Positions 44,503 through 61,876 are shown, numbered from the stretch's first letter. The stretch is 64,000 nt of DNA from an uncultured Candidatus Saccharibacteria bacterium (GCA_964404925.1 CAYOLW010000001.1:105408-169407); one strand, 5' to 3'. Notes: generated by a model from the letters alone, not told the origin. Numbers and translations: made by a program.

Positions 44503-45492
44503 ATGAATCCAGCAGAAGTTTTAAAAAAATATCCAAATTTTGAAAAAGATTTTTCTATCCACGAATTCGGTGTGGGTGCGACGAACACAACCTATCGAGT
44601 AGACAGAGGAGGTGAATTATTTATTTTACAAAAAATGCATGCTGTGTTTAGCAGAGAATTAATAGAGGACATAGATACTGTCACCAAGCATTTAGCAGGG
44701 CAGGGTATTTTAACAGGGCAGGTGATCCGGACCCTAGACGGAAGGCTGTTCGTAGAAGACGCAGATTCTTGGTGGAGAATGTTTACTTATGTAACAGGGA
44801 ATATTTTTACTGCAATTGAAGGTGAACAAATGGCAGAGAGTGCGGGCAGACTGATTGGTACTTGGCATCAGGCTTTAGCTAATCTGGAATATGATTTCAA
44901 ATTTCAAATTCCTGATTTTCATAATGTTGAATTAACTCTTGAAAAGCTTGCAGAAATACTTATAGAGTGTGTGCACGATGCTAAATATGAATCATTAAAA
45001 CCCTTGGCTTTGAATGTACTAAAAGACTATAAATCCTTACCGAAAATTGATAACCTACCGATCCGTATTATTCACGGAGACTTGAAAATTAGTAATGTTG
45101 TTTTTGATGAAAATGGTGAAGCTGTTTCAATCATCGACCTTGATACATTTATGCATTCGACTATTGCCATCGAGATGGGGGATGCGCTACGCAGCTGGTG
45201 CATGCCGGGTGGGGAGGATACCGACTATGTCAGGTTTGACCGGGGGATATATGACGCAGCGCTTAAAGGGTATTTTGAAACAGCAGAATTCTTAACAGAA
45301 GAAGAAAAAGCATCTATACCTTATGGAGTAAAATTAATTACACTTGAGTTAACAGCGAGATTCATCATTGATGCTTTCACCGAAAGTTATTTCAAATTGA
45401 ATAGCAGCTACCCGAGCCTGTACGAGCAAAACAAAAAACGCGCAGAGAATCAATACGCGTTTTTCCAATCTTTTAGCGAAGCAGAAATGTAG
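44503..45492 (+). CDS. Phosphotransferase of the APH/choline-kinase-like kinase fold
   Basis: The HGDLKISNVVFD catalytic loop and the IIDLD motif are present. Confidence 0.65.
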   Translation: MNPAEVLKKYPNFEKDFSIHEFGVGATNTTYRVDRGGELFILQKMHAVFSRELIEDIDTVTKHLAGQGILTGQVIRTLDGRLFVEDADSWWRMFTYVTGNIFTAIEGEQMAESAGRLIGTWHQALANLEYDFKFQIPDFHNVELTLEKLAEILIECVHDAKYESLKPLALNVLKDYKSLPKIDNLPIRIIHGDLKISNVVFDENGEAVSIIDLDTFMHSTIAIEMGDALRSWCMPGGEDTDYVRFDRGIYDAALKGYFETAEFLTEEEKASIPYGVKLITLELTARFIIDAFTESYFKLNSSYPSLYEQNKKRAENQYAFFQSFSEAEM

Positions 45493-45583
45493 CTTTTCTC
45501 CAGTACGGAATTTTTGAAGCTTAAAAATTCCTGAAGTTGGCTCGCCGTCGCTCGCCAAACCCCTCCGAAAAGCTACATTTCTG
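45482..45583. repeat. Complex palindromic region between convergent genes. It comprises a 17-bp perfect inverted repeat (cagaaatgtagcttttc / gaaaagctacatttctg) spanning both stop codons, an inner 25-bp palindrome (ggaatttttgaagcttaaaaattcc) and a gctcgcc direct repeat.
   Basis: All three elements can be seen directly in the sequence. The region probably acts as a bidirectional terminator. Confidence 0.55.
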
Positions 45584-46342
45584 CTAGCTCATTTCCTGAA
45601 TAATTTGATCCATCATGAGTGCTGCCGGGAGGCGAGCGACATCAAGCGGTACAAAGTAATCTCCTTCAACCTTGCTTGCGTCCGCTGATACGGATATACC
45701 TGCAGCATCAATCATTTCTTTATCATTTAGATTGTCTCCAATAGCCAGCACTTCACCCTCGGCCAAGCCCAGGTAGTTCCTGTATGCAGAGAGGCCCACT
45801 GCTTTGTTCTGAATTCCTTTGACCCCGATGTCATATGCTTCGCCGTTCCAGATGGCATACAGGCGGTCATTCTCGGCGACGATGTTTTCAATCTCTGGGA
45901 CTCTATCTGTACAATGGATGGTGATTATTAATTCTTTGGGTTCAAAGCCTTTCACGTTTTCGTGTCTGGACTCGATGCCGCGTAATTTCAAAAAAGTTTC
46001 TTGCAAATGGTCAAAGCTGTTCACGTGCTGGATTATTTCTCCGCGGTGCCAGGTGGCGCTGCCGTTCTCGTATGTGAGACTGGTAAAGGGAAGTATGTCT
46101 CGGAAAACTTCTTGCAGCATATACAACCCGCGTCCAGAATTGATATTGATCATGAACCCTAGTTCTTTTAATTTCTTGATCTGCTCAATCTGCTCGGGGG
46201 CGATGTGTTTCGTCTCGAGTGTTGTAATGTTATTTGATTGTTTTATATTCGTTCCACGGGGGACCAATACTCCATCTACATCGAAAACTATTAGTTTAAT
46301 ATTTTTCAAAACATCCTTCGTTAGTTCCTCAATTGGTTTCAT
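45584..46342 (-). CDS. HAD-IIB (Cof-like) hydrolase
   Basis: LIVFDVDGVL (motif I) and GDNLNDKEM (motif IV) are present. Confidence 0.7.
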   Translation of the reverse strand: MKPIEELTKDVLKNIKLIVFDVDGVLVPRGTNIKQSNNITTLETKHIAPEQIEQIKKLKELGFMININSGRGLYMLQEVFRDILPFTSLTYENGSATWHRGEIIQHVNSFDHLQETFLKLRGIESRHENVKGFEPKELIITIHCTDRVPEIENIVAENDRLYAIWNGEAYDIGVKGIQNKAVGLSAYRNYLGLAEGEVLAIGDNLNDKEMIDAAGISVSADASKVEGDYFVPLDVARLPAALMMDQIIQEMS

Positions 46343-46376
46343 GAGTTAATTCTAAGCTTTTTATTCCTAGCGTCAA

Positions 46377-47570
46377 ATGGGAAAATTATGTTATTATAAC
46401 AATATGCAAAAGGAAACTGTTCCATTTGTGAATAAAAATAATCTAGTTTGGTGTCGAGAAAAATCTGGTTTAACTATTAATCAGGTCTATGAAAAAGCTA
46501 AGTGGTCATCAAAAACTCATAAAATTGAAAAATGGGAAGCCGGTTCAGATTTTCCTACCATAGATGACTTAAAAAAGCTTGGTAAAATTTACAAAAAGGC
46601 TTGGACACTTTTTGTTTTTGAGCAAGATTTGAAAAATTTAGATTTCATGGTAATGAAAGATTTTCGTGGCTGTATCTCAGATTCTAAAGGGGAAGAAAAG
46701 AGTGAAATAATTCAGTTTCTAAATGAAATAGAACGTCGACAACTATTTGTCATTGAATTCTCTAATGCCCTTGAAATTATCGGTAATAAAAGTTTTGGTT
46801 CGTTGACTGAAGTAAAGGATGTTAATGTCGTTGCGAATAAAATAATCCAAAATCTTAATCTTAATATGGAAGAATTTCGCAGAAAGAAAACAAGATTAGA
46901 AGCCTTAAATTTCTTGCAAGAAGAATTGGGGCGAAATAATATATTTGTTTCTTTTTCTAGCACCAATCCACATAAAAAAATAAGTCTTGAACATATGCGT
47001 GGGGTTTTAATGAGGTCTTTTCTGGCACCAATTATTGGTATTAATTCTGCAGAAAAGTCGGTGGGCGCTAAGATTTTTACTATTTTTCATGAGCTTGCAC
47101 ACCTGTACACAGAAAAGGTTGATCATGATGTTTTAATTGACACTATTAATTTTCGAGATTTAGGTAAGCGTAATACAAAAGAGGGCTTGTGTGATCAGAT
47201 AGCTGCAGAAATATTAGTACCCCGTAATATTCTTGTTGAATTAAAAGGCACTTCATTCAATCCAGAGATTGTTAAGAAATATTGTATTTATTTGAAAGTT
47301 AATCGTGAGCCTTTTTTAATACGTGCAAAAGAACATGGTTTAATTAGTGAACAAGAATTTAACTCATTAAAAAATATTTCGGTTGAAGAACAAATTAAAA
47401 AAAATAAAAAAGGTAATCCGGATGGCGGTTTATTGCATATTTTGAAAAATGGCAAGTCTTTTATGCGGCTTGTTAATTCTCTTTACTCAACAGGCCTAAT
47501 ATCATATTCACAAGCACTAGGTGCTTTAAATACAAAATCCAATGCTTTTAATAAATATGTAATTAGATAG
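46377..47570 (+). CDS. XRE-family HTH domain fused to an ImmA/IrrE-family (COG2856, DUF955) zinc metallopeptidase
   Basis: The N-terminal HTH reads LVWCREKSGLTINQVYEKA. HELAHL (HExxH) lies in the C-terminal domain. Confidence 0.7.
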   Translation: MGKLCYYNNMQKETVPFVNKNNLVWCREKSGLTINQVYEKAKWSSKTHKIEKWEAGSDFPTIDDLKKLGKIYKKAWTLFVFEQDLKNLDFMVMKDFRGCISDSKGEEKSEIIQFLNEIERRQLFVIEFSNALEIIGNKSFGSLTEVKDVNVVANKIIQNLNLNMEEFRRKKTRLEALNFLQEELGRNNIFVSFSSTNPHKKISLEHMRGVLMRSFLAPIIGINSAEKSVGAKIFTIFHELAHLYTEKVDHDVLIDTINFRDLGKRNTKEGLCDQIAAEILVPRNILVELKGTSFNPEIVKKYCIYLKVNREPFLIRAKEHGLISEQEFNSLKNISVEEQIKKNKKGNPDGGLLHILKNGKSFMRLVNSLYSTGLISYSQALGALNTKSNAFNKYVIR

Positions 47571-47574
47571 ATTT

Positions 47575-48063
47575 ATGGAAGTAAACAAATCAGCACTATA
47601 TGTTTTCGATAGTAACTGTTTTATTGAGCCTTGGAATAAGTTTTATTCTTACGAATTTTTTGAGCAATACTGGGATAAGTTTTTAAAAAAAAGTTTAAGC
47701 GATTGCACAGTCTTAATTCAAGAAGAAGTTTATAATGATATTCTAAAAAAAGATGATGGTCTTAATCGTTGGTTGAAAGGTTTTAAGATAGAAATTGTTA
47801 AAACTGATATAAGTATAACTCGAGAAGTTGCGGCTATAAATAATAAATTCCCAAAGTTGACAAAAGAATATAGTGGTAGATCTTTTTCAGATCCTTTTGT
47901 AATAGCACTAGCTAGGTTTCGTAAGGCAACAGTTGTAACCATGGAAGATTTCGGTAGTGAAAATAAACCAAAAATACCATTTGTATGTGACCAAATGGGT
48001 GTTAAATGTATTGATTTATTTAAGTACTTAAAGATTGAAGGCGTATCTTTTTCAATCAAATAA
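47575..48063 (+). CDS. DUF4411-like PIN-like nuclease-fold protein, partner of the ImmA/IrrE gene
   Basis: YVFDSNCFIE, SDPFVIALA and VVTMED fit the PIN-like acidic-residue pattern. It lies 4 nt downstream of the ImmA-HTH gene. Confidence 0.6.
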   Translation: MEVNKSALYVFDSNCFIEPWNKFYSYEFFEQYWDKFLKKSLSDCTVLIQEEVYNDILKKDDGLNRWLKGFKIEIVKTDISITREVAAINNKFPKLTKEYSGRSFSDPFVIALARFRKATVVTMEDFGSENKPKIPFVCDQMGVKCIDLFKYLKIEGVSFSIK

Positions 48064-48239
48064 TTTTTTGTTGTGGACTTAGTAGCGAAAAGTGCGAACC
48101 AAATGAGAGCCTTTATAAATCAATGGTCAGAGTTCTTTAAACATAACAAACCAAACTTTCAAACAACCTAAAACCTTTATTTTAAAACATTTTATTGCTT
48201 ATTAGATATCACAATAAGAGTATTGAATACTATCTATTA

Positions 48240-49517
48240 CTACAGGTTCTTAAAATAAAAGTCTGGCAGAACAACTTTTAATTCTTCGTTAGCTGCACGA
48301 TAGCGATCTGGCGAGTGCGGAGTTGATGGATATTTATCAACGTCTTGAGGATTAGGTCTTTCTATTAGTTTTATGTCAAAAGTATTAAGTATTTCCTTGT
48401 CTTCACCGACAACTAACCTGTTTGTATATTGTAAGTAGGAATTGTTTGTTATTAATATAAGTCTAGCTATTTCATTTCCAGCACTAATAGCTTTTACCTT
48501 AACAAACTGTTTAAAGTAAGAGTAATTATCTTGGACATTAATGTATTTTGATGCTGTAACAGCAATACATATAAGTCTATTAGGTTTATATCCCAGCCTT
48601 GATAGTTCAATGTAATCAAGATTGGCTTGTCTTAATATGAGCTTTATTTTTCTCATAGTCATTTCGGGATATCTTATGTGTATGTACTCTAAAAACTCAG
48701 TAAGTTTTTTATCTTCACCTATAGTGTCAGTTGGATCAGCTTCAAATACATCAGCTACAAAATCTTGTAAATTACTCTCACTTTTTTTATTAAAAAACTC
48801 AATATAATCAAAACATTTTAAGTATGTTTCAATGTTGTCTTCATAACTTTTATTTGATACAGCAACAATAACGGTAACTTGTTTTTGTAAGGTATTTTTA
48901 GTTAAAAACTGTCTAAATGTTTCTAAAAAGAAAAGTCCATCTGGTCCTGATCTATCTATGTCTTCAATAACAAAAACTATCTTATCTTTATCCACTGCAT
49001 TAATAAGTGAGGTAAAAATATCTTGTATTTCAAACACTCGTCTTGCTGGAGACTTATCAGCAAAGTATTCAAGATTTTTTACAAGTCCAAATAGTGGTTC
49101 AAGTAACTTAGGTAACCCAAAAGCAGTAGTTGCAACATTCAAGATAGAACCAGCGGTATTTATTCCTAGTTTCTTGTCTTTACCAGATTGCCCATCAACT
49201 TCTCGTTTAACTTTTTCAAGCATACTTAGTTGTCTAGCTGTTTCAAGGATTAGCCCGTCCCATAATTCTTTGCGCTCTGGAAATTGCCAAGCATCAAAAT
49301 GGACCCACTGCTCAGTTGTTTCTTTTTGTTTTCTAATCTGTTCAATCAAGGTACTCTTTCCAACACCAAAAGGTCCGATAATTCCTATTATTTGAGAACC
49401 TTTCTTTGATTGCAACTTCTCAGTTAGCGTACTTACCGAAGAAGAGATATTAAGATAGTCTTTATCAGAAACTTTTTCTTCTAGTAAATCAACATTTTTT
49501 ATAAAACCATTTTTCAT
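48240..49517 (-). CDS. KAP-family P-loop NTPase
   Basis: IGIIGPFGVGKSTL (Walker A) and IVFVIEDIDRSGPD (the KAP-type DDLDR Walker B) are present. It lies 15 nt downstream of the Abi-alpha::Nudix gene. Confidence 0.7.
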   Translation of the reverse strand: MKNGFIKNVDLLEEKVSDKDYLNISSSVSTLTEKLQSKKGSQIIGIIGPFGVGKSTLIEQIRKQKETTEQWVHFDAWQFPERKELWDGLILETARQLSMLEKVKREVDGQSGKDKKLGINTAGSILNVATTAFGLPKLLEPLFGLVKNLEYFADKSPARRVFEIQDIFTSLINAVDKDKIVFVIEDIDRSGPDGLFFLETFRQFLTKNTLQKQVTVIVAVSNKSYEDNIETYLKCFDYIEFFNKKSESNLQDFVADVFEADPTDTIGEDKKLTEFLEYIHIRYPEMTMRKIKLILRQANLDYIELSRLGYKPNRLICIAVTASKYINVQDNYSYFKQFVKVKAISAGNEIARLILITNNSYLQYTNRLVVGEDKEILNTFDIKLIERPNPQDVDKYPSTPHSPDRYRAANEELKVVLPDFYFKNL

Positions 49518-49532
49518 AACGCCTAAATCTTA

Positions 49533-50933
49533 TTAATTAGATTTAATTATTAAAGTATTTTTTACTTCTTTAAAAATAGCCAACATATCATCACTTAAAA
49601 TTAAATTTATGAACTTCTTTTTGTCTTCTTCAGATAAGTTTGGTAAATCGTCAATTTTCCAAGCTTCAAAACCTTCTGCTTTACCTTCTTCAACTTTTAG
49701 ATCTGAGATAGGACCTTCATAAAGATAGGCATACTGGCTACGGATTGTGTTATTAGTAAGTTTAGTTACCTCATCAAAACTTTCCTTTCTCATTTTTCTT
49801 AGAAAAGTTAGCTTTGAAAGATCAATATCAATACCTGTTTCTTCTTTGCATTCTTTTACAGCGGTTTCTTCATATGACATTTTGGGTTCAACGTGTCCTC
49901 CAACAGTAGCGTCTAATTTATCAGGATAGGTATCTTTGTTTTTTGCTCTATGTTGAAAAATAATCTCTCCTTGAGGCGTAATAAACCAGATATGTATTTC
50001 CCGATGGAGAAGTCCGTCTTTGTGTATTTTTGAACGAGTTTGAAGACCCACTACTTTATCATCCTCATCAATTACCTCAAGGATTTCTTGGTATTTATAA
50101 TTTGATATTGAGTAGTGTTCTTTTAACCACTCAGTATACCCATCAACCTTTTTTGTTTTCAGATGTTGCAATATTTCTTTACCAGCAACAGAAATTGCAT
50201 AAAAAGTAGGTATTCTTAAATCTGCATTATTTTCTATGATTGGTTCAAAAACAATTTGCTCATCAAAGTAATCAATTATATACGGTAAGCCATCAGGGTT
50301 AGATATATTTCTAGTCATATCGTTTGGTAAAAATAAGCCTAAACTTTGCAGTGCTTGGAGACTACCAAAATGTAAACCTAATCCAGACATCATTTCTTTA
50401 ACATTTTCACTGCCACTGAATAAATCTTTTGGAAGTTGCTCATTATTTAACAATAGCCCAGATATTTTTTCAAAAAGCTCTAGTTCTTTTTTACCTATGG
50501 ATTTTAATGTTTGCAAAGTGCTCATTGAATAAGTTTCAGGATTGTTGTATTCTCCAGCGATTATTTTTGCAATCAAATCTTGAACCTCTTCATTTGAAAC
50601 TTCTTTTGCGTGTTCAAGAAGTCCCCAGAAGACGTCATTGTCATCTTTTATATTATTTTCAGAACTCGTAATCAAGTCTTTGGTTTTAAGTAAAGCATTA
50701 CCCAAGTTGGCATATTGGCGACCCATTTTTTGAGCTTCCGCTTGTAACCAAAAAGGTTTTTCTAAAAGTTCCCATTTTGTTTTAACCTTGTCAGCTTCAA
50801 TATCTCCCTCAGCTTCAAAAACTTTTATGGATTTACCTGTATACTTTGTAATTACAAAATCAACAAACTTATCAGCCACCTTTGTTAAGGTCGCTTTTCC
50901 TAGATCTTTTAATGGTTGAGGTAAATCGCTCAT
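49533..50933 (-). CDS. Fusion protein: an N-terminal Abi-alpha-like (DUF4393-like) domain and a C-terminal Nudix hydrolase domain
   Basis: The N-terminal region has ...DVFWGLLEHAKEVSNEEVQDLIAKIIAGEYNNPETYSMSTLQTLKSIGKKELELFEKISGL, which resembles Abi-alpha. The C-terminus has the Nudix box GGHVEPKMSYEETAVKECKEETGI. The start is the ATG at 50933, preceded by an extended -10 TGTTAGAAT. Confidence 0.6.
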   Translation of the reverse strand: MSDLPQPLKDLGKATLTKVADKFVDFVITKYTGKSIKVFEAEGDIEADKVKTKWELLEKPFWLQAEAQKMGRQYANLGNALLKTKDLITSSENNIKDDNDVFWGLLEHAKEVSNEEVQDLIAKIIAGEYNNPETYSMSTLQTLKSIGKKELELFEKISGLLLNNEQLPKDLFSGSENVKEMMSGLGLHFGSLQALQSLGLFLPNDMTRNISNPDGLPYIIDYFDEQIVFEPIIENNADLRIPTFYAISVAGKEILQHLKTKKVDGYTEWLKEHYSISNYKYQEILEVIDEDDKVVGLQTRSKIHKDGLLHREIHIWFITPQGEIIFQHRAKNKDTYPDKLDATVGGHVEPKMSYEETAVKECKEETGIDIDLSKLTFLRKMRKESFDEVTKLTNNTIRSQYAYLYEGPISDLKVEEGKAEGFEAWKIDDLPNLSEEDKKKFINLILSDDMLAIFKEVKNTLIIKSN

Positions 50934-50998
50934 AATTGCTATTCTAACATTTTTAAGATTAAAAAATAAGTCTAAAAATGGTATAATTAGGTGTATAA

Positions 50999-51370
50999 AT
51001 GGTGGAAAAAACATATAACTTTAATAATCTTAAAATCCGATCAAAAGCTATTGCAAAAGCTCGTATTTCAACTCGTCCAAAGACATATAACTCTAAGAAA
51101 AAACGCTTGGAAGACATACAAAGAGAACTGATAAAATCAGAACTTATAAAAGAAGGATTTTTAGACCAATTAAAGCCACATATGCCAAAAATAACAGAGG
51201 CTGTTATTCAGAGTGCTTGTGATCCAAGCTCTAAGGGTACAAGTGACAGGAGAATTATATTTCAAGCGGTTGGTATTTTAGGAAAAGATACTCAAGTAGA
51301 GCCAAGCCAGACAATAGCGGATGTGTTAGCTGAGATTTTTAGTGAAGAAGTAGTAAACAGTAAAAGCTAG
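50999..51370 (+). CDS. Hypothetical protein (island cargo)
   Basis: An ORF with ATG, transcribed divergently from the Nudix gene and preceded by TGGTATAAT. No family recognised. Confidence 0.4.
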   Translation: MVEKTYNFNNLKIRSKAIAKARISTRPKTYNSKKKRLEDIQRELIKSELIKEGFLDQLKPHMPKITEAVIQSACDPSSKGTSDRRIIFQAVGILGKDTQVEPSQTIADVLAEIFSEEVVNSKS

Positions 51371-51418
51371 GAAAATCTAGGGAATTATAAATATATCCCT
51401 TGATATGCTATAGGTAGT

Positions 51419-51634
51419 CTATGTTTTTTCTTTATTAGAAGTTATTTTGTAATAATTTGGAAATAGAACTTTAACTTTGTCTTTTTTAGTGGCTAATTTA
51501 GCCAAAAATGGCTTCATAACGAGCTTTGGACGCTCAGATATAGATTTGTTCCATAACCACTTTTTATAGCTATTTATGACTATTTTACTTAAGAAACTAG
51601 TCATACGACTATTTCTTAGATCTAAGCTTTTCAA
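51419..51634 (-). CDS. Hypothetical small basic protein
   Basis: The ORF overlaps the upstream membrane-protein ORF by 26 nt in another frame. It could be real or a frameshift remnant. Confidence 0.25.
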   Translation of the reverse strand: MKSLDLRNSRMTSFLSKIVINSYKKWLWNKSISERPKLVMKPFLAKLATKKDKVKVLFPNYYKITSNKEKT

Positions 51635-52007
51635 CTTTATAAGCTTTATATAAGAAAAATACGGTAAGCCCAGTAAAAAAGATTATAAAGTAAAGGATAT
51701 CTGGACTACTTGAAAAGTCACCATTTATATCTCTTCTACTTTCAACATATCTAGCTAAAATAATAAAACCTAAAATAATAGAATATATTTTTGTTGTGAT
51801 AACCAAACCAACACTAGCTTTCTTGATAAGTAGGTAAGAAAATATAAATCCTAAAATAGTAAAGACTAAAGGTGCAGCTAAGGATAAGAGTATTAAAAAA
51901 ATAGCTGCAACACCTCTGTTTGTTTTGTGCCATTTAAGACTTTTGTATTGTTCTACTTGCTTTATAAAAGAACTTTCTTTTTGCTTGATTTCTTCAGTTG
52001 TGATCAT
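51609..52007 (-). CDS. Hypothetical membrane protein
   Basis: A 132-aa protein with 3-4 predicted TM helices. Confidence 0.4.
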   Translation of the reverse strand: MITTEEIKQKESSFIKQVEQYKSLKWHKTNRGVAAIFLILLSLAAPLVFTILGFIFSYLLIKKASVGLVITTKIYSIILGFIILARYVESRRDINGDFSSSPDILYFIIFFTGLTVFFLYKAYKVEKLRSKK

Positions 52008-52671
52008 ATTTTTTGTATAAAAAATAGGCTAATAATTTAGCCTATAAACAAATATAGGCAACCCAGTGGGTGCTCACAAAACCAATAGACAAGCTACTGA
52101 TTATGCTTCCCACATAGGTCGCCTATGCTTGGCACAATCAGTAACTAACCCTTTTTAAGGGTTCGCTTGATGTCTTTTTATTGGTTTTGTGAGCAAGTTA
52201 ATGATAACATAATTTGATTTTATTTTTAAGTTATAAATGTTATAATGTACCTAACTAGAGATTTTCTAGTTAGGTCTGACACAACCTTAAGCTCAAAAAA
52301 GACACTTTTTAATTTTTACAATAGTCTTGAGAGTAATAATGTGATTAAGCTAGTTTTGAAACATAAAAATGTACCCACTAGTTAAAAGAAAGCTAGCCGA
52401 GTTGTATGCTTTATTTATGTTAGAAAATGCACAAAGTAGCTTAGTGTGAAGTTGCAACTTATCACCTCGTGATATTTCCAATCAAGTACACAGAGTAAAT
52501 AAATAAATCCTCCTGCCTCTTACAGGAAATCCTTGAAGATAGTATCTCCAAGCCGATTAAGGGTTTATTTGCCACTCTGTCTAGCTGATTAGACGTATCG
52601 CAAAGACACAGCCTTTATGGGCTGTTTTTTTGTTTTATTAGGTGTCACACAAACCCACTATGCCAAACTAA

Positions 52672-52830
52672 AATGACATTAGAGGAGTTTAAAAAACATT
52701 TTAAAAACAAAAATGTAAATGATGAGCGTATAAAAGAAATACGCGATTATTTGTATGCAATTTCAAGAGAAATTGTCTTAAACAATTTAAACGAATACGA
52801 AAAACAGATAAAAGAAAAAGGTGTAAAGTA
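52672..52830 (+). CDS. Small ORF (52 aa) immediately upstream of the recombinase. It could be a recombination directionality factor or Xis-like helper, or a spurious ORF.
   Basis: It runs from an ATG at 52672 to a TAG at 52828-52830 (MTLEEFKKHFKNKNVNDERIKEIRDYLYAISREIVLNNLNEYEKQIKEKGVK). The assignment rests on position only. Confidence 0.25.
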
Positions 52831-52843
52831 GTATAATGAATAT

Positions 52844-54490
52844 ATGAGTAAGCATAAAAAAACTATTGTTAAAAACCCAAAACAGCAATTTTCTCTTGAT
52901 GGATATGTAGGTTTGCCTTATTTACGTGTTTCAAGTAAGAGACAAGAAATTGAGGGTACTGGCTTACAAAGCCAAGAAAAAAGATGTTTAATGGAGCTTT
53001 CTAATATAGGTATTCCTCACGAGAAAAGTTTTTTTGATAGCTATACAGGGGGTGGGGATTTTATGAACCGACCAGCAATGAGATCTTTACTTGCGTATGT
53101 TGATGCGCATCCTCATAAAAAGTTTGTAGTCATTTTTGATGATTTAAAAAGATTTGCTAGAGATACCGAATTCCACTTAAAGCTTAGACTGGCTTTTAAA
53201 AATAGAGGTATAGTTCCAAAATGTTTAAACTATAATTTTGACGACAGTCCAGAAGGGATGTTTGTTGAAACTGTTTTGGCTGCATCAAATGAATTAGAAA
53301 GAAAACAAAACGCTAGACAGGTAGTGCAGAAACAAAAAGCACGACTTGAGGCTGGGTATCGCGCGTTTCCGTCTGTTAAAGGGTACACAAGAGTAAAAGA
53401 TCCTATTCACGGAAAGATTGATATTCAGAACGAACTTGCTATATATGTAAAAGAAGCTTTAGAAGGATTTGCAAGTATGCGTTTTGTTCACAAAATTGAT
53501 GGGGCTAAGTTCTTACAAGAAAAAGGAGTAATAAGTAAAAAACAAAATGCTGATAAAGCAATTTCTACTTTTGATAAGATGCTAAGAGAAGTCTTCTATG
53601 CTGGATACATAGAATACGAGCCTTGGGAGGTAAATAGAAGGGTTGGACACCATAAGAGCTTGATTGGTCTTGATACTTTTAATAAAAACCAAAATAGGCT
53701 GATTAAAAACGCAGTTTCTTTTACTAGGCAAGATATACGAGAAGGGTTTGAGTTAAGGGGATTAATAAACTGTGCATACTGTAATAAAAAGTATACTGGT
53801 GGACCTTCAACTGGTAGGAGTGGTAAAAAATATAATCTATATAAATGCCCAACAGTAGGCTGTGAAAGATATGGTAAAAGTATAAGTACAAAAATTGTTC
53901 ACACGCATTTTGAAGACTTATTAAAAAATATAAAACCGTGCGAAGAAATAATTGATCTAGCTAAGAGTGTTTTTGAAGAAGTGTGGAACGAGGAAATTAA
54001 AAACAGATCAAGCCTGCATAGTTCAATCATTAAGCATAAAAATGATTTAGAAAATGATATCTCAACTTTTACTGACAGAATATCAAAAGCAGTAGAAACA
54101 GGGGCAAGTGAACTTGTAATAAAACAATATGAAAAGCAAATACATAAAATTGCCACTGAATTAGAAGATCTTGAAGAAAACATAAGCTTAGCGTATGACT
54201 ACAGTATTCCTTATAGAACCGCTAGTGAAGAAGTGTTAGGTGTGTTAAAAAGCCCTTATGCTGTATGGAAAAATTACAATCCAGCACAAAAACAAAGGTT
54301 CTTCTCTTTTATATTTGAGACTAATTTAATTTATAGTAAAGAAGAGGGTTATAGAACACCAAGTTATTCTTTACCTATAAGGATATTTGAGGAAATAAGT
54401 ACCTCAAAACCCCTTGATGTGGAACTGGGGGGAATTGAACCCCCGTGCAGAAAGTGTGTGCCAAGAAATCTACATGTGTATTTTGTTTAA
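52844..54490 (+). CDS. Large serine recombinase (resolvase/integrase family). The last ~23 codons are read across the antisense of the tmRNA 3' end.
   Basis: It has an N-terminal resolvase catalytic domain (YLRVSSKRQE with the catalytic Ser; FDDLKRFARD), then a recombinase domain, a zinc-ribbon-like CxxC...CxxC region (CAYCNK...CPTVGC) and a coiled-coil. Confidence 0.8.
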   Translation: MSKHKKTIVKNPKQQFSLDGYVGLPYLRVSSKRQEIEGTGLQSQEKRCLMELSNIGIPHEKSFFDSYTGGGDFMNRPAMRSLLAYVDAHPHKKFVVIFDDLKRFARDTEFHLKLRLAFKNRGIVPKCLNYNFDDSPEGMFVETVLAASNELERKQNARQVVQKQKARLEAGYRAFPSVKGYTRVKDPIHGKIDIQNELAIYVKEALEGFASMRFVHKIDGAKFLQEKGVISKKQNADKAISTFDKMLREVFYAGYIEYEPWEVNRRVGHHKSLIGLDTFNKNQNRLIKNAVSFTRQDIREGFELRGLINCAYCNKKYTGGPSTGRSGKKYNLYKCPTVGCERYGKSISTKIVHTHFEDLLKNIKPCEEIIDLAKSVFEEVWNEEIKNRSSLHSSIIKHKNDLENDISTFTDRISKAVETGASELVIKQYEKQIHKIATELEDLEENISLAYDYSIPYRTASEEVLGVLKSPYAVWKNYNPAQKQRFFSFIFETNLIYSKEEGYRTPSYSLPIRIFEEISTSKPLDVELGGIEPPCRKCVPRNLHVYFV

Positions 54491-54812
54491 AGTTTTAAAC
54501 TCATAGATTATTAAACGAACAAAATATCTTTGAGTCGATTCCTAAGTTTTCGTGAGTTGTGCGGACGGGCAACTCCTTATTCCGATAATATTACACCTTA
54601 ACCCATGCATCGGAAGTCGATGGGCAAGACGCCAGATTCGACTAAGCGAAAGCTGGAGCAAAAGCGAAATCCTTCATACCGAAGTATGGAGATTTCATTC
54701 CTGCCTTAGATGCTAATTTTGCAATTAGACTTTGAACGCTTATTAACGAGCATGCGTTCATCCTCGACATGCATCAAGACACGACGGCTTACTGTCTATG
54801 CCTGGCAGTCCC
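54419..54812 (-). ncRNA. ssrA: tmRNA (ssrA)
   Basis: On the minus strand the 5' end is GGGACUGCCAGG and the 3' end is GGGGGUUCAAUUCCCCCCAGUUCCAC (tRNA-like T-arm). The acceptor stem has the G3:U70 wobble typical of Ala charging. The conserved UGCAUGUCGAGG box and PK1 are present, followed by an internal ORF ending GCU UUC GCU UAG. It is adjacent to smpB. Confidence 0.85.
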
Positions 54813-54831
54813 ATATTTTTTTCTCAATGTT

Positions 54832-55281
54832 CTACCTCTTATACTGACGGCGAATGTCTATATCCGTTTCACGTTTCTTGATAGTCTCGCGTTTATCGAA
54901 CTTCTTTTTACCGCGAGCAACCGCAATTTCTAATTTAACTTTGCGGTTTTTACTATACAACGAAAGTGGCACTATCGTCAAACTTTTGTTTGCTTCTGTT
55001 TCAGATAATTCTTTGATTTCTTTTTTGGTTAAAAGTAGCTTACGATTACGCAATGGATCATATCCCTGTGGTGCATTGATTTCTTGGTAAGGTTGTATAT
55101 TAGCATTGATTATAAAAGCTTCTCCTCCGCGAATAATGACAAAAGCACCCAAGAGGGATACCTTGCCTGCGCGGATGGCTTTAACCTCGGTGCCGATTAG
55201 TTCGATACCGCATTCGTATTTTTCCTGTATTTCATAGTCAAACCAGGCTTTTTTGTTTTCAGCATATACTGCCATAGTCAT
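54832..55281 (-). CDS. smpB: SsrA-binding protein SmpB
   Basis: A 149-aa protein (...NKKAWFDYEI...GIEL.GTEVK) with a basic C-terminal tail. Confidence 0.9.
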   Translation of the reverse strand: MTMAVYAENKKAWFDYEIQEKYECGIELIGTEVKAIRAGKVSLLGAFVIIRGGEAFIINANIQPYQEINAPQGYDPLRNRKLLLTKKEIKELSETEANKSLTIVPLSLYSKNRKVKLEIAVARGKKKFDKRETIKKRETDIDIRRQYKR

Positions 55282-55350
55282 ATTTTAACACAAAGAATCG
55301 CACTACTAAATAATTTTCTAAAAGTTGATTTTGTTTGATATAATTATTAT

Positions 55351-55755
55351 ATGAGTTTTTTCAAATTTGAAGGTAAAAATACAATAAAGGAAGGAGAAGA
55401 ACACACACCTATTAATGAGATTTTATCTTATGGAGTAATGAAAGATAACTTACATATACATTTAATTCCAACTTATTCTTTTAGCCGACAGGATAAAGTA
55501 GATTACCTGCGTTCGGGGATTGTCCCTAATAATTTAATTGATGGTCTGAAAAAGTTGGCTATTATTGTGCAAGGCGATAATAAGATTAAAAAAATATCAG
55601 CCACATCTCCCGTTGTTTCTAATCATCCAGAAATTTTTGAAAAATTAGGTTTTAAGTATCATGGAAAAGTTGAATACAAACAGTATAACAATCTTGGTTA
55701 TGCGGAAATTTCTAGAGAGGATTTTTTAAAAAAATATTGTTTAGAACAACAATAG
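55351..55755 (+). CDS. Hypothetical protein
   Basis: An ORF with ATG. No family recognised. Confidence 0.35.
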   Translation: MSFFKFEGKNTIKEGEEHTPINEILSYGVMKDNLHIHLIPTYSFSRQDKVDYLRSGIVPNNLIDGLKKLAIIVQGDNKIKKISATSPVVSNHPEIFEKLGFKYHGKVEYKQYNNLGYAEISREDFLKKYCLEQQ

Positions 55756-55792
55756 AATTCCAATTCTTGTTTTTTTGTGTTAACATTTCCAC

Positions 55793-57700
55793 ATGGAATT
55801 TAAATTTTTAAACCAAGAAGAATCAAAAGAAAAAGGAAAAGGGAAGAAGAAGCCTAATGAGCCCAAGTTTATGGGTAGCATTGCTTCCACTGTCCTGATT
55901 TTCATGATTTTAACTGCATTATACCTAGTACTATCTGGTTCTGGTGCGGAAAAAACAACTCAAGTACCCATCTCGGCTGTTGCCGGTGAGGTCGCCGCAG
56001 GACAGGTGCAGGGAATAGTGGTTGAAGGCGAATCCCTCAAAGTTTCCTTAAACGACGGTTCTATTCAAGAATCTAAAAAAGAAGCCGAGGCTTCACTTTC
56101 AGAAACATTATCTAATTATGGAGTTACCAGAGAAGAACTATCAAAAGTAAAAATTGAAATCAAAAATGAATCCGGATGGGGATTCTGGCTCGGCAATATT
56201 CTGCCTTTTGCTTTGCCGATAATATTTATTGTCTTTTTCTTCTGGTACATGTCTCGCAGTGTGAAGGGTGCTGGTATGCAAGCGTTTACCTTCGGCCAAT
56301 CCAAGGCTCGCATAACGGATCCGGATGATAAAAATAATCGAGTAACTTTCAAAGACGTGGCTGGCTGCAAAGAAGCTAAAGAAGAATTAAAAGAAATCGT
56401 AGACTTCCTGAAAAGTCCAAAAAAGTTCCTAGATATTGGCGCCCGTATTCCCAAGGGTGTGATTCTAACTGGTGGCCCAGGTACTGGTAAAACATTGCTT
56501 GCCCGCGCTGTAGCGGGGGAGGCATCGGTTCCATTCTTTCATTTGTCTGGTTCTGAATTCGTAGAAATGTTCGTGGGTGTGGGTGCATCTCGAGTACGCG
56601 ATTTGTTCAAGATGGCTAAGAGGTCAGCCCCAGCAATAATATTCGTCGACGAAATAGACGCTATTGGACGTACTCGTGGAGGGGGATTCGGTGGAGGAAA
56701 CGACGAACGCGAGCAGACCCTAAACCAAATATTGGTTGAAATGGATGGATTTGAACCCAATGACAAGGTGATAGTGATGGCCGCTACCAACAGACCGGAT
56801 GTTCTCGACCCGGCGCTTGTGCGCCCAGGACGTTTTGACCGCAAAGTAATACTTGATTTACCGGACCGTGCTGACCGTGAAGCTATACTTGGAATTCATG
56901 CACTTAAAAAGCCTTTGGCTGAAGATATAAATTTGAAATTAATTGCTGAGCGTACTCCGGGGTTCTCGGGCGCGGATTTGTATTCTGTGATGAACGAAGG
57001 TGCTATTTTAGCCGCTCGCGAGAACAGGAAAAAGGTTTCTCAATTTGACTTAATTCGTGCAATTGAAAAGGTGATGCTGGGCCCTGAGAGAAAGAGTCAT
57101 CTACTCAGTGATATGGAAAAGAAAATCACTGCCTACCATGAGGCCGGCCATGCATTGGTTGCCTCTGTGCTGCCGTATGCAGATCCAGTGCACAAGGTTT
57201 CTATTGTAGCTCGTGGTTCAGCTGGTGGATATACGCTGAAGCTTCCACTCGAAGATCGCAAACTACAATCTAAAAAAGAATTCCTAGACGACATCGCAAT
57301 GTCTTTGGGTGGTTATGTGGTGGAAAAAATGATTTTCGGCGATGTGACTACCGGCCCTTCTTCTGATCTACAAGTAGCTTCCAACTTAGCTCGCGCTATG
57401 GTTACCCGCTGGGGTATGTCGGATTTGATTGGTCCAGTGGCTCTTTCCGAAGGTAGCAAGAATCCATGGTCTGATCACACAGACAAAGAGTACTCCGAAG
57501 CATTGGCGGAGAAAGTTGACTCTGAAGTTTCTAAGATTATCCAAGGAGGGCTCCAGTCTGCAGAGCAGGTTGTAAATGATAATCGCAAGGCTCTGGATGC
57601 GATAGCCGCGAAACTAATTGAAGTTGAAACCCTAGAACAAGAAGAATACGAAAAGATAATTATTGCCCACGGAATATTACCAAAGAAAAAAGCCGAGTAA
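55793..57700 (+). CDS. ftsH: ATP-dependent zinc metalloprotease FtsH
   Basis: Two TM helices, then an AAA module (GPPGTGKT Walker [10 protein letters not shown] Walker B), an SRH, and the HEAGHA zinc-binding motif. Confidence 0.95.
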
Positions 57701-57712: not shown

Positions 57713-57721
57713 TTTCTATTG

Positions 57722-57795
57722 TCCACCCTCATGGATTCGAACCATGGACCCCAGAGGTATAAGCTCTGTGCTCTAACCAACTGAGCTAAGGGTGG
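57722..57795 (-). tRNA. tRNA-Ile with anticodon UAU (74 nt; CCA not encoded; C1:G72; discriminator A)
   Basis: A cloverleaf can be drawn by eye: acceptor CCACCCU/AGGGUGG, D-arm GCUC/GAGC, anticodon stem CAGAG/CUCUG with loop CUUAUAC, and T-arm CAUGG-UUCGAAU-CCAUG. Confidence 0.7.
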
Positions 57796-61579: not shown

Positions 61580-61611
61580 AGACTATATTATAGCATTAGT
61601 TTTGTTTGGTG

Positions 61612-61698
61612 CGGATAGGGTGGGATTCGAACCCACGGTTCTTTTTACAGAACGGCGGTTTAGTAAACCGCTGCCTTAAGCCTCTCGGCCACCTATCC
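61612..61698 (-). tRNA. Class-II tRNA-Ser (G73 discriminator, long variable arm) with an apparent anticodon ACU
   Basis: The acceptor is GGAUAGG/CCUAUCC. The D-arm GCC-GAGAGGCUUAA-GGC is nearly identical to E. coli tRNA-Ser. The anticodon stem is GCGGU/ACCGC with loop UUACUAA. The variable arm is GUUCU-GUAAAA-AGAAC, and the T-arm is GUGGG-UUCGAAU-CCCAC. Confidence 0.7.
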
Positions 61699-61784: not shown

Positions 61785-61876
61785 GGAGACGTGTCAGAGT
61801 GGTCTAACGTACCTCTTTGCTAAAGAGGCAGGGGCTTCAAAACCCCTCGGGAGTTCGAATCTCCCCGTCTCCGCCA
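61785..61876 (+). tRNA. Class-II tRNA-Ser(GCU)-like gene with encoded CCA and a non-canonical D-arm
   Basis: The acceptor GGAGACG/CGUCUCC and the G73-CCA end are perfect. The anticodon stem is CCUCU/AGAGG with loop UUGCUAA. The variable arm is GGGG-CUUCAAAA-CCCC and the T-arm is GGGAG-UUCGAAU-CUCCC. No standard 3-4 bp D-stem can be drawn; the D region instead folds as a 6-bp stem with a 4-nt loop. Confidence 0.55.

Follow-up and report, generated by a model that had tools for sequence, protein, structure and literature searches.

Within a 64,000-nucleotide stretch of DNA from an uncultured Candidatus Saccharibacteria bacterium (GCA_964404925.1 CAYOLW010000001.1:105408-169407; hereafter the window, with positions counted from its first nucleotide), positions 48073 through 54423 very probably constitute an integrative element of ~6.35 kb. 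We propose that this element is moved by a large serine recombinase (LSR), that its attB site is the extreme 3′ end of the transfer-messenger RNA (tmRNA) gene, and that its attP site resides inside the recombinase gene. A preliminary description of this DNA had proposed that a large serine recombinase moved an island into the 3′ end of the tmRNA gene (ssrA) without leaving a long duplicated 3′ end, and this is borne out by the comparisons reported below. Although the observation is confirmed and its core interpretation is right in kind, the boundaries and att sites proposed at that time are wrong. The island had been given as 46350–54400, whereas the att-bounded element is 48073–54423 and excludes a pair of ImmA and DUF4411 genes. 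The overlap between the recombinase open reading frame (ORF) and ssrA is present as described, but it had been treated as a curiosity. It is the most informative feature of the locus and the family-wide signature of an attP site inside the recombinase gene.

The recombinase reading frame enters the tmRNA gene

The recombinase gene in its integrated (attR) form encodes 548 amino acids (Table 1). Codons 1–525 (52844–54418) are encoded by the element, and the protein from residue 526 onward (54419–54490) derives from the antisense strand of the host tmRNA gene. This last portion, 23 codons plus the stop codon (72 nt), is antisense to the tmRNA acceptor and T arm, and the previously noted entry of the ORF into the 3′ end of ssrA is therefore no translation artefact.

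Several lines of evidence bear on the identity of the protein. A Pfam Resolvase domain (PF00239, 1.4e-15) spans residues 26–171 and includes the motif YLRVSSKRQ, of which R28, V29, and S30 are invariant in an alignment of 41 homologs. The Zn_ribbon_recom match (4e-4) falls below the curated cut-off, and Cys310, Cys313, Cys335, and Cys340 are invariant. The protein also matches PHROG 95, annotated as an integrase (4.5e-48), and PF07508 assignments are precomputed for many of its homologs. A sequence search of the PDB yielded the TP901-1 catalytic domain (2e-4) as the sole match; therefore, a fold search was needed to confirm the family. The AlphaFold2 model of P0017, a database homolog that is 62% identical to the window recombinase, has a predicted local distance difference test (pLDDT) score of 80 and long helices at residues 369–446. 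Foldseek aligned this model with full-length serine integrases over ~540 columns (SPbeta-type 9dxf_A at 3e-18, plus Bxb1, phiC31, and LI 4kis), with an identity to the solved LSRs of only 13–16%. By its domains and the fold of its homolog, the window protein is a large serine recombinase (serine integrase).

A conserved 52-amino acid ORF immediately precedes the recombinase gene, and tblastn revealed homologous ORFs of ~50 amino acids at the same position throughout the family, including in L001, L002, L003, L081, and L086 (L numbers denote the related loci and contigs that were compared). It matched no known family in Pfam, PADLOC, or PHROG, and we infer that it is a candidate directionality factor or regulator. 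An exact-protein look-up of the window SmpB, the recombinase, and the 52-amino acid ORF returned no record.

An empty site and a sister element define the ends

Orthologs of the HAD protein encoded in the left flank were used to reach three close relatives. One of them, L084, provides the empty site that the preliminary description had suggested should be sought. The flanking HAD protein of L084 is 86% identical, and its locus carries tmRNA and smpB but no recombinase; the tmRNA gene is followed on its 3′ side by a terminator hairpin, a small GIY-YIG gene, and ftsH. Identity between the window and L084 begins exactly at GTGGAACTGG, i.e., at G54419, where the L084 junction reads ...agcgaagca-GTGGAACTGGGGAGAATTGAACTCCC and that of the window ...ccccttgat-GTGGAACTGGGGGGAATTGAACCCCC.

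The left end was located by comparison with a sister element, L081/L082, whose recombinase is 83% identical but which has different host flanks and different cargo (a DUF4238 gene). When the window was compared with L081 by blastn, only two blocks aligned, namely 51480–54483 (83.5% identical) and 48072–48229. The left block begins with T-GTGGAC in both sequences (48072/48073 in the window and 6383/6384 in L081). From these two blocks and the right end established with L084, the mobile unit is 48073–54423, with a GTGGA core at both ends. Mobility also is backed by the different cargo carried by the relatives L081 and L083.

On the tmRNA strand, GTGGA covers the final bases of the acceptor stem plus A73 (the discriminator) and C74. 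The full CCA is absent from both the empty and the occupied tmRNA gene, and it also is missing from some tRNA genes of the window. A 26-nt query representing the ssrA 3′ end, allowing up to three mismatches, found the tmRNA copy alone in the window, and only 5 bp are shared between the two ends. Because no copy of the ssrA 3′ end was found at the left border, the classical duplicated-tDNA model was dropped. In related loci where the target is tRNA-Leu, attR carries GTGGG and attL carries GTGGA. The obligatory shared bases therefore are GTGG, and the 2-bp crossover must be within them.

The AT-rich shift previously noted at 46.35–54.4 kb also was measured. GC content is 0.27–0.36 in 500-nt windows across 46250–54499, compared with 0.46 for the left HAD gene, 0.41 for tmRNA/smpB, and 0.35–0.43 for most upstream core genes, such that the shift is genuine yet moderate. 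The preliminary description had staked its interpretation on three points, and on each the outcome is in its favor: the gene block is not universally syntenic beside ssrA, the composition does shift, and the recombinase ORF does not end before 54419.

An independent Logan assembly of run SRR12762285 contains an exact copy of window positions 45535–51993, including the HAD junction and attL (contig L096), and a second contig (L097) corresponding to 54417–56560 that begins 2 nt before the attR core. Positions 51994–54416 were not recovered as a long contig in this assembly, and L096 breaks just before a conserved non-coding block. These breaks hint that the recombinase module occurs in the sample as several variants or in several contexts. 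The break of L097 at 54417 is consistent with heterogeneity at the junction but is no proof thereof.

The gene order at this locus is inverted relative to that of its relatives. The window is identical to L083 through the HAD side up to 46379 and then diverges. The block comprising the AT-rich module, the element, tmRNA, and smpB (46380–55275) is inverted with respect to L083, L084, and L081, where the order is HAD, smpB, tmRNA, (island), and ftsH; the window order is HAD, island, tmRNA, smpB, and ftsH. The inversion is delimited on the left by 46379/46380, a breakpoint that an independent Logan contig reproduces, and on the right by the start codon of smpB (~55275).

Table 1. Coordinates of features at the ssrA locus of the window
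Feature	Position	Strand	Support
AT-rich flanking module, outside the element	46380-48072	+	Pfam, PADLOC RmrA/CapP-like, PHROGs
HTH + Peptidase_M78 (ImmA/IrrE-like) gene	46377-47570	+	Pfam
DUF4411 gene	47575-48063	+	Pfam
attL core GTGGA, left end	48073-48077	+	L081 homology start
Orphan "tail exon", 32 codons (VDLVAKSANQMRAFINQWSEFFKHNKPNFQTT) + stop	48073-48171	+	Translation, L081 match, family-wide tblastn
KAP-family P-loop NTPase, 425 aa	48240-49517	-	Pfam KAP_NTPase 8e-8, NB-ARC; weak PADLOC PifA/QatA
DUF2806 + NUDIX hydrolase fusion, 493 aa	49533-51014	-	Pfam DUF2806 1e-18, NUDIX 2e-12
Orphan ORF, 123 aa	50999-51370	+	ORF list; called as gene in Logan contig L096
Small ORF, 71 aa	51419-51634	-	Shared with L081 (73 aa there)
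Small ORF, 132 aa, three hydrophobic segments by inspection	51609-52007	-	Shared with L081 (132 aa)
Conserved non-coding region	52022-52637		L081 comparison, folding, terminator scan
Intrinsic terminator, other side of hairpin	52045-52024	-	Terminator scan
Y-shaped hairpin, 125 nt	52071-52195	both	Folding z-scores -8.2 (+), -9.4 (-)
17-nt perfect inverted repeat	52071-52087 / 52179-52195		Repeat search
Promoter-like site	52229-52201	-	Sequence
Extended -10 TGTTATAAT	52240-52248	+	Sequence
11-nt perfect inverted repeat/hairpin	52249-52259 / 52265-52275	+	Repeat search
Repeated 18-mer	52270-52287 and 52638-52655		0 expected by chance
Terminator	52608-52632	+	Terminator scan
Conserved 52-aa ORF directly upstream of recombinase	52673-52831	+	tblastn
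Large serine recombinase, integrated (attR) form, 548 aa	52844-54490	+	Pfam, PHROG, homolog fold
attR core GTGGA, right end (tmRNA ...U-C-C-A73-C74 on other strand)	54419-54423	+	L084 identity start
tmRNA gene ssrA, intact	54417-54812 (Rfam), 54419-54812 (ARAGORN)	-	RF00023 full length, 120 bits, E 4e-47
smpB, host gene, partner of tmRNA	54832-55281	-	Pfam SmpB 7e-53

The recombinase gene continues across the joined ends

When the right end of the element (...P L D) is joined to its left end, the recombinase ORF continues in frame as VDLVAKSANQMRAFINQWSEFFKHNKPNFQTT followed by a stop codon (48073–48171). We term this orphan coding segment the tail exon, and its first ~27 nt double as the P′ half-site. 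With the catalytic motif YLRVSSKRQ, the tail exon, and both cores present, the element looks intact. The first 25 residues of the L081 tail are identical to those of the window, and the nucleotide differences in this portion are synonymous as judged by eye. A tblastn search, repeated once with the first-pass tails as queries, detected a tail exon in 62 of 88 sequences, on the plus strand and upstream of the recombinase. Every detected tail exon begins with GTGG(A/G). A peptide pattern recognized by eye, K-[TS]-S-N-x-L-K-x-Y-L...F-W...P-x-L-Q, recurs in elements whose recombinases are only 40–50% identical.

The tail exon is under purifying selection in the recombinase frame only. Among 23 phylogenetically independent pairs, the ratio of nonsynonymous to synonymous polymorphism (pN/pS) for tail codons 10–32 is 0.42 in this frame (0.39 in a control run), whereas the alternative frames of the same nucleotides give 0.98 and 1.21. 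Tail codons 1–9 show reduced synonymous change, as expected if the DNA there also is the P′ half-site. Although the sequence is AT-rich, the tail stays open for a median of 35 codons (47 elements).

Proteins in the attP form also are present in databases. Most of the 120 best database hits end in antisense-tRNA tails, while P0017, P0018, and P0073 carry the uninterrupted tail as judged by motif and a few more appear attP-like by eye. In P0017/L086 and in the circular contig L088, the gene runs directly into the tail. In the P0017 model, the att-encoded residues 509–533 form a disordered linker, and the conserved tail is a short, low-confidence helix (532–547). With its residues in a disordered linker, the att DNA site is predicted to occupy a coding stretch that is tolerant of change. 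The placement of attP inside the recombinase gene characterizes the family as a whole.

Upstream of a single recombinase, series of two or three tail exons were found in L004 (895, 5798), L027 (1425, 3020, 3981), and L028, as well as in L060 (4137, 5110) and L068 (4949, 5784). Such series imply that elements inserted earlier at one and the same tRNA or tmRNA end, and that they persist there as tandem arrays or as decayed remnants. This arrangement suggests that an occupied site can be re-used, which fits a one-sided attB.

A family of small elements includes circular forms

Databases hold at least 1,598 homologs of the recombinase, and at least 579 relatives are present in species-representative genomes, almost all of which are Patescibacteria metagenome-assembled genomes. 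The C-termini of the 41 aligned homologs (with identities as low as 45%) read ...RLFEE..T..P.DVEMGGIEPPC... or variants such as GLEPATPSLQMRCSTR, which are antisense translations of tRNA-like T-arms. We scanned 80 related loci, in which the final part of the ORF is shared with the 3′ end of a convergently oriented gene for tmRNA, tRNA-Ala, or, in two cases, tRNA-Leu(CAG). An in-frame junction, ...GAT-GTGG(A/G) followed by GGAATCGAACC and the T-arm, is shared by 73 loci, comprising 28 tmRNA genes called by ARAGORN, 21 tRNA-like sequences that were not called, 19 tRNA-Ala genes, 2 tRNA-Leu genes, and 3 attP forms. All six of the uncalled loci that were tested with Rfam proved to be tmRNA. The median element size is 6.3 kb (n = 53).

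Protein P0073 provides direct evidence that members of this family occur in the attP form, either as free circles or as head-to-tail multimers. Its gene is present on five contigs of ~6.5 kb from five sequencing runs, with circularly permuted gene orders. Two of these contigs have terminal overlaps of 29 and 30 nt and close into identical circles of 6,531 bp, in which ...GAT-GTGGAC... lies within an intact 554-amino acid ORF. The same terminal-overlap test gave no circularity for the P0017 contigs (L086 and L087) or for several short loci, such that circularity was shown for the P0073 contigs only.

Two loci within long contigs depart from the common pattern. L046 (a 129-kb contig binned as Bacteroidota) and L075 (binned as Saprospiraceae) are without the in-frame GTGGA/T-arm junction (reading GTGAAC... 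and GTCCAC..., respectively), and neither has a called tRNA or tmRNA gene. The L075 frame runs on into a tail-like peptide. These cases could reflect mis-binning, an episome, or a different mode of integration.

The tRNA-like end supplies one half of attB

The short att sites, the small common core (GTGGA), and the absence of a long target duplication are as expected for an LSR. The acceptor strand and T-arm at the tmRNA 3′ end form the B′ half-site, and the last bases of the flanking module form the B arm of attL. CGAAC is present at position +18 in 51 of 70 B′ arms, and xGAAC is present at +23 in 33 of 45 P′ arms. For the integrase of the Listeria phage LI and other LSRs, the DNA motif of the zinc ribbon is displaced away from the crossover by ~5 bp in attP relative to attB (PMC3783163). 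The 5-bp outward shift seen in the sequences of this family matches this LSR characteristic, and here the zinc-ribbon motif is the T-loop/T-stem sequence itself.

A model for integration and its consequences for the recombinase

From these observations we suggest the following scheme. The free circle would encode a 557-amino acid enzyme carrying the conserved C-terminal helix, with the P arm formed by the last ~9 element-encoded codons and the P′ arm by the first ~9 codons of the 32-codon tail. This enzyme would recombine the attP site in its own gene with the tmRNA end. The predicted attP junction is ...ACCTCAAAACCCCTTGAT-GTGGA-CTTAGTAGCGAAAAGTGCGAACC... (longer form, AGTACCTCAAAACCCCTTGAT-GTGGA-CTTAGTAGCGAAAAGTGCGAACCAAATG), and the predicted attB junction is ...CAAATAATTTTTTGTT-GTGGA-ACTGGGGGGAATTGAACC... 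(longer form, TTTCAATCAAATAATTTTTTGTT-GTGGA-ACTGGGGGGAATTGAACCCCCGTGC). As attP and attB share an identical core, the tmRNA would be rebuilt through C74 with no long repeat, and the remaining CA would presumably be added post-transcriptionally by the CCA-adding enzyme. The integrated copy would then make the 548-amino acid protein, whose tail would be a meaningless antisense translation of tmRNA, and excision would restore the recombinase gene. Integration and excision thus would swap the last ~30 amino acids of the enzyme.

The two protein forms may differ in activity, stability, or direction, a prospect that we place anywhere from rather doubtful to about evenly balanced. A bolder and tentative version, which we are inclined to doubt, is that the gene contains its own directionality switch. 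The tail helix of the circle form would license attP × attB recombination, and its replacement upon integration would leave the resident enzyme locked, unstable, or prone to excision. If so, the recombination state would be written into the recombinase protein rather than being set only by a separate directionality factor, and a second element inserted in tandem would restore a full-length tail to the first. The enzyme also would read a universal feature of RNA genes, the T-loop plus acceptor end, as a one-sided attB.

It is possible, though we consider it improbable on balance, that the overlap and the tail exon are functionless, with attP abutting the gene for compactness and both protein forms being equal. 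The tails of integrated forms are dictated by tRNA sequence and vary in length, AlphaFold leaves the tail off the protein body, and the authors who described ssrA islands in Dehalococcoides also weighed a trivial explanation (PMC3146451). However, the purifying selection acts in a specific frame and on codons 10–32, which lie beyond a normal 25-bp half-site, and the long open tails and the recurrence of the peptide pattern at 40–50% recombinase identity likewise argue for a coding role. If the entire 46350–54400 stretch were one island from a single event, with the ImmA/DUF4411 pair as its cargo, the uniformly low GC content over 46250–54500 would be accounted for, as would the ImmA-like HTH/M78 genes carried as cargo by the related element L083. 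This is quite improbable given that L081 aligns only from 48072/48073, that the tail exon and GTGGA core are at 48073 with no tail exon or core-plus-tail detected near 46380, and that typical elements are ~6.3 kb.

The preliminary description had listed the inverted repeats and 18-mer upstream of the recombinase (52068–52658) as candidate recombination or operator sites, and there is very little to recommend them as recombination or res-like accessory sites. They are real, non-random, and located just upstream of the recombinase operon, and the 18-mer occurs once near each putative promoter region, where an operator role is possible. However, the element ends elsewhere, with att cores at 48073 and 54419, and the repeat region is common only to the closest sister (L081/L082 and the fragment L095), not to other family members. 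L081 does not conserve the second copy of the 18-mer, other members carry a LOOT RNA at the equivalent position, and the region combines terminators on both strands with an extreme predicted stability of its RNA. We conclude that the upstream repeats are not recombination sites. Even harder to credit is a recombinase that is a resident, domesticated host gene beside ssrA, such as an invertase: serine recombinases can invert DNA and the smpB–tmRNA–island block is inverted relative to three relatives, but a close relative has an empty site, cargo and flanks vary among relatives, members of this family also occupy tRNA-Ala and tRNA-Leu genes and occur as free 6.5-kb circles, and the composition shifts. 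The least credible proposal is a classical tyrosine-integrase island or prophage at a tRNA or tmRNA gene, with the serine recombinase as a passenger. No tyrosine-recombinase or phage structural match was found among ORFs of at least 100 amino acids in 45584–55281, no displaced ssrA 3′ end is present, and the junction falls at the recombinase's own codons in 73 loci, even though ssrA is a well-known hotspot for tyrosine-integrase elements (PMC4383910).

Several points weigh against the proposed LSR-moved element with attP in its recombinase gene. The empty site comes from a related species whose tmRNA flank is arranged differently, and no excised circle or empty site turned up for this very element or its strain. 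When metagenome and viral contigs were scanned for the exact attP junction of this element, 0 matches were obtained. Enzyme activity, the crossover dinucleotide, and directionality are deduced from sequence comparisons; the closed circle with an attP-form gene, the empty site, and the occupied sites give indirect support to attP × attB recombination through a 2-bp staggered cut. The attB sites of LSRs normally have two recognizable half-sites; here the B arm shows no detectable conservation across 45 elements and only B′, the tRNA end, is conserved. The absence of two quasi-symmetric attB half-sites leaves the protein-family assignment unaffected. Some of the tail conservation, namely that of the SN residues (codons TCGAAC), may be imposed by the DNA site and not by the protein, and the AlphaFold tail helix of the attP-form homolog P0017 has a pLDDT of ~55, follows a disordered linker, and is docked nowhere. 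Finally, the element carries no recognizable replication or transfer genes.

Relation to known integrative elements

A serine recombinase at ssrA had been considered unusual in the preliminary description, but the islands at this gene in Dehalococcoides are an earlier example (McMurdie et al. 2011, PMC3146451). The recombinase of those islands, DsiB, is a serine recombinase of ~540 amino acids whose gene overlaps attL/ssrA with its 3′ end in every case; the ORF, which contains no stop codon within the island, reads into ssrA or into a neighboring island, and islands form tandem arrays downstream of ssrA (PMC3146451). The authors speculated that the DsiB gene is complete only on the circular form (PMC3146451). 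They also described a six-gene integration module (including DsiA, a small serine recombinase, along with RecF-like, ParB, and Mom proteins and a pseudo-tRNA) and C-terminal alignments that diverge (PMC3146451).

By their published description, the DsiB islands appear to be the closest precedent. The 548-amino acid ORF of the window is likewise at the island edge and extends 72 nt into the tmRNA 3′ end. The differences include a core of 5 bp, located at the very 3′ end, in place of a 20-bp repeat, much smaller elements, another host phylum, and retargeting among tmRNA, tRNA-Ala, and tRNA-Leu. The ORFs of the window element contain no DsiA, RecF-like, ParB, or Mom domains, no tRNA is present inside it, and the partner of the recombinase is the ~50-amino acid ORF. 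A conserved alternative tail is shown here, and together with the location of attP in the gene it makes the speculation about DsiB concrete by raising the question of whether the tail encodes the integration state.

The LSRs of phages and integrative and conjugative elements (phiC31, Bxb1, A118/LI, TP901-1, and SPbeta) resemble the present system in having a catalytic domain, a recombinase domain, and a zinc ribbon with an inserted coiled coil, as well as short att sites, a small common core, and a 5-bp shift of the attP motif. Well-studied serine integrases target protein-coding genes or intergenic DNA and usually avoid tRNA genes, and their attP sites are beside the integrase gene, not inside it. 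In contrast, attB here is a tRNA-like 3′ end in which the T-loop supplies the motif and one half-site is conserved, and recombination rewrites the C-terminus of the enzyme. An attP site within the integrase ORF and a tRNA gene target are features of SSV1-type archaeal virus integrases, for which integration partitions the gene; these are tyrosine recombinases of archaeal hosts, and the split falls near the 5′ part such that a large fragment is separated. Another conceptual analogue is found in mycobacteriophages such as BPs and Brujita, which have attP inside a coding sequence, and integration changes the C-terminus of the protein and its behavior or stability, which serves as an integration-state switch. 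The gene cut in those phages is the repressor gene and their integrase is a tyrosine recombinase, whereas here the recombinase's own gene is cut.

Small cargo-carrying elements at a few tRNA genes and the tmRNA gene also are known from the streamlined genomes of Prochlorococcus, where tycheposons are in the great majority tyrosine-recombinase elements bounded by partial tRNA repeats, and 27 of 937 have a large serine recombinase (bioRxiv 10.1101/2020.12.28.424599). The window element differs from Islander-type tyrosine tDNA islands in having neither a tyrosine integrase nor a displaced ssrA fragment.

The literature that was searched, in a limited library, contained no prior description of this Patescibacteria family, which is weak evidence of novelty. 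The elements represent a large, apparently undescribed family of very small (3–11 kb) integrative elements in Patescibacteria, whose mobile DNA is poorly charted and whose genomes are tiny. The apparent recognition logic, i.e., the T-loop and acceptor end of tmRNA, tRNA-Ala, or tRNA-Leu with a GTGG core and a TCGAAC motif that is shifted by 5 bp between attB and attP, could be of interest to integrase engineers. Many metagenome contigs appear to end near these junctions.

A structured non-coding block and LOOT RNAs

The repeats noted in the preliminary description upstream of the recombinase do exist, but upon remeasurement the 11-nt inverted repeat, the 18-mer pair, and the 17-nt inverted repeat are slightly displaced from the coordinates first given (Table 1). 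They belong to a region (52022–52637) that is 92% identical to L081, compared with 83% for the recombinase. This region contains no ORF of 50 amino acids or more and a few very short ORFs by eye. A search of 51950–52900 matched no Rfam family even at relaxed thresholds, and among the related loci searched by blastn and nhmmer the non-coding block matched only L081/L082. Five terminator-like sites were found compared with 0.4 expected, and in L081 the hairpin at 52249–52275 stays paired despite a double change and a G-U change. One true additional copy of the structured element, L095 (1,075 bp, 95.7% identical), was located with a 22-mer. From these features the block likely comprises two divergent non-coding RNA genes of ~175 nt (minus strand) and ~375 nt (plus strand) within 52018–52632, possibly with an operator. 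Because the three available copies are near-identical and too few for covariation analysis, this reading stays inferential.

The exact 22-mer from the element stem, CTCACAAAACCAATAGACAAGC, also occurs in two GC-rich metagenome contigs (L093, 2326–2347; L094, 2828–2849) that share nothing else with the element. This sharing may be due to chance.

LOOT RNA (Rfam RF03000) is a regular passenger of these elements, for example in L011 (8690–8811), L032 (9332–9451), L083 (6586–6718), and circular L088 (183–301). A model built from five Rfam hits (R1) found 51 copies in 86 sequences. Of those that could be placed, 35 of 37 are inside an att-bounded element, 1.9–3.9 kb from attR; the other two are further out, one in an older tandem remnant and one in an unusually long element. 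LOOT RNA thereby gains a genomic home, as in this sample it is almost always inside these elements. The main text of PMC5737381 does not include LOOT RNA, and no assigned role was found. The window yielded no LOOT match with Rfam at E ≤ 10 and none with the purpose-built model at E ≤ 0.01. At the relative position of LOOT, the window and L081 carry a different structured non-coding block, and the resemblance is positional only.

Cargo genes and the flanking module

The cargo of the element comprises a KAP-family NTPase, a DUF2806–NUDIX fusion, and the 123-amino acid orphan ORF, which has no family match in Pfam, PADLOC, or PHROG; the two small ORFs beside it are shared with the sister element. 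The earlier characterization of the cargo as defence-like is plausible but is only weakly supported by the Pfam and PADLOC matches.

Left of the element, the DUF4411 gene starts 4 nt after the helix-turn-helix (HTH)–M78 gene, and its stop codon is 9 nt from the attL core. HTH–M78 and DUF4411 genes can occur as a two-gene pair on mobile elements. Positions 46380–48071 have no match to the sister element L081. The module at 46380–48072 is neither core flank nor part of the att-bounded element, and it is probably older mobile DNA beside the ssrA hotspot.

Other features of the window

A perfect 19-nt inverted repeat (45480–45498 / 45567–45585), whose arms are 68 nt apart, separates the convergent APH-like and HAD genes and is probably a bidirectional terminator or other structured element. 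ARAGORN identified a tRNA-Ser with the unusual anticodon ACU (61611–61698, minus strand) that is divergent from a tRNA-Ser(GCU) (61785–61876, plus strand). The same pair is present in L004, L011, and L067, and both members score as tRNAs with Rfam in L011. A tRNA-Ile(UAU) gene at 57721–57795 is conserved across the clade.

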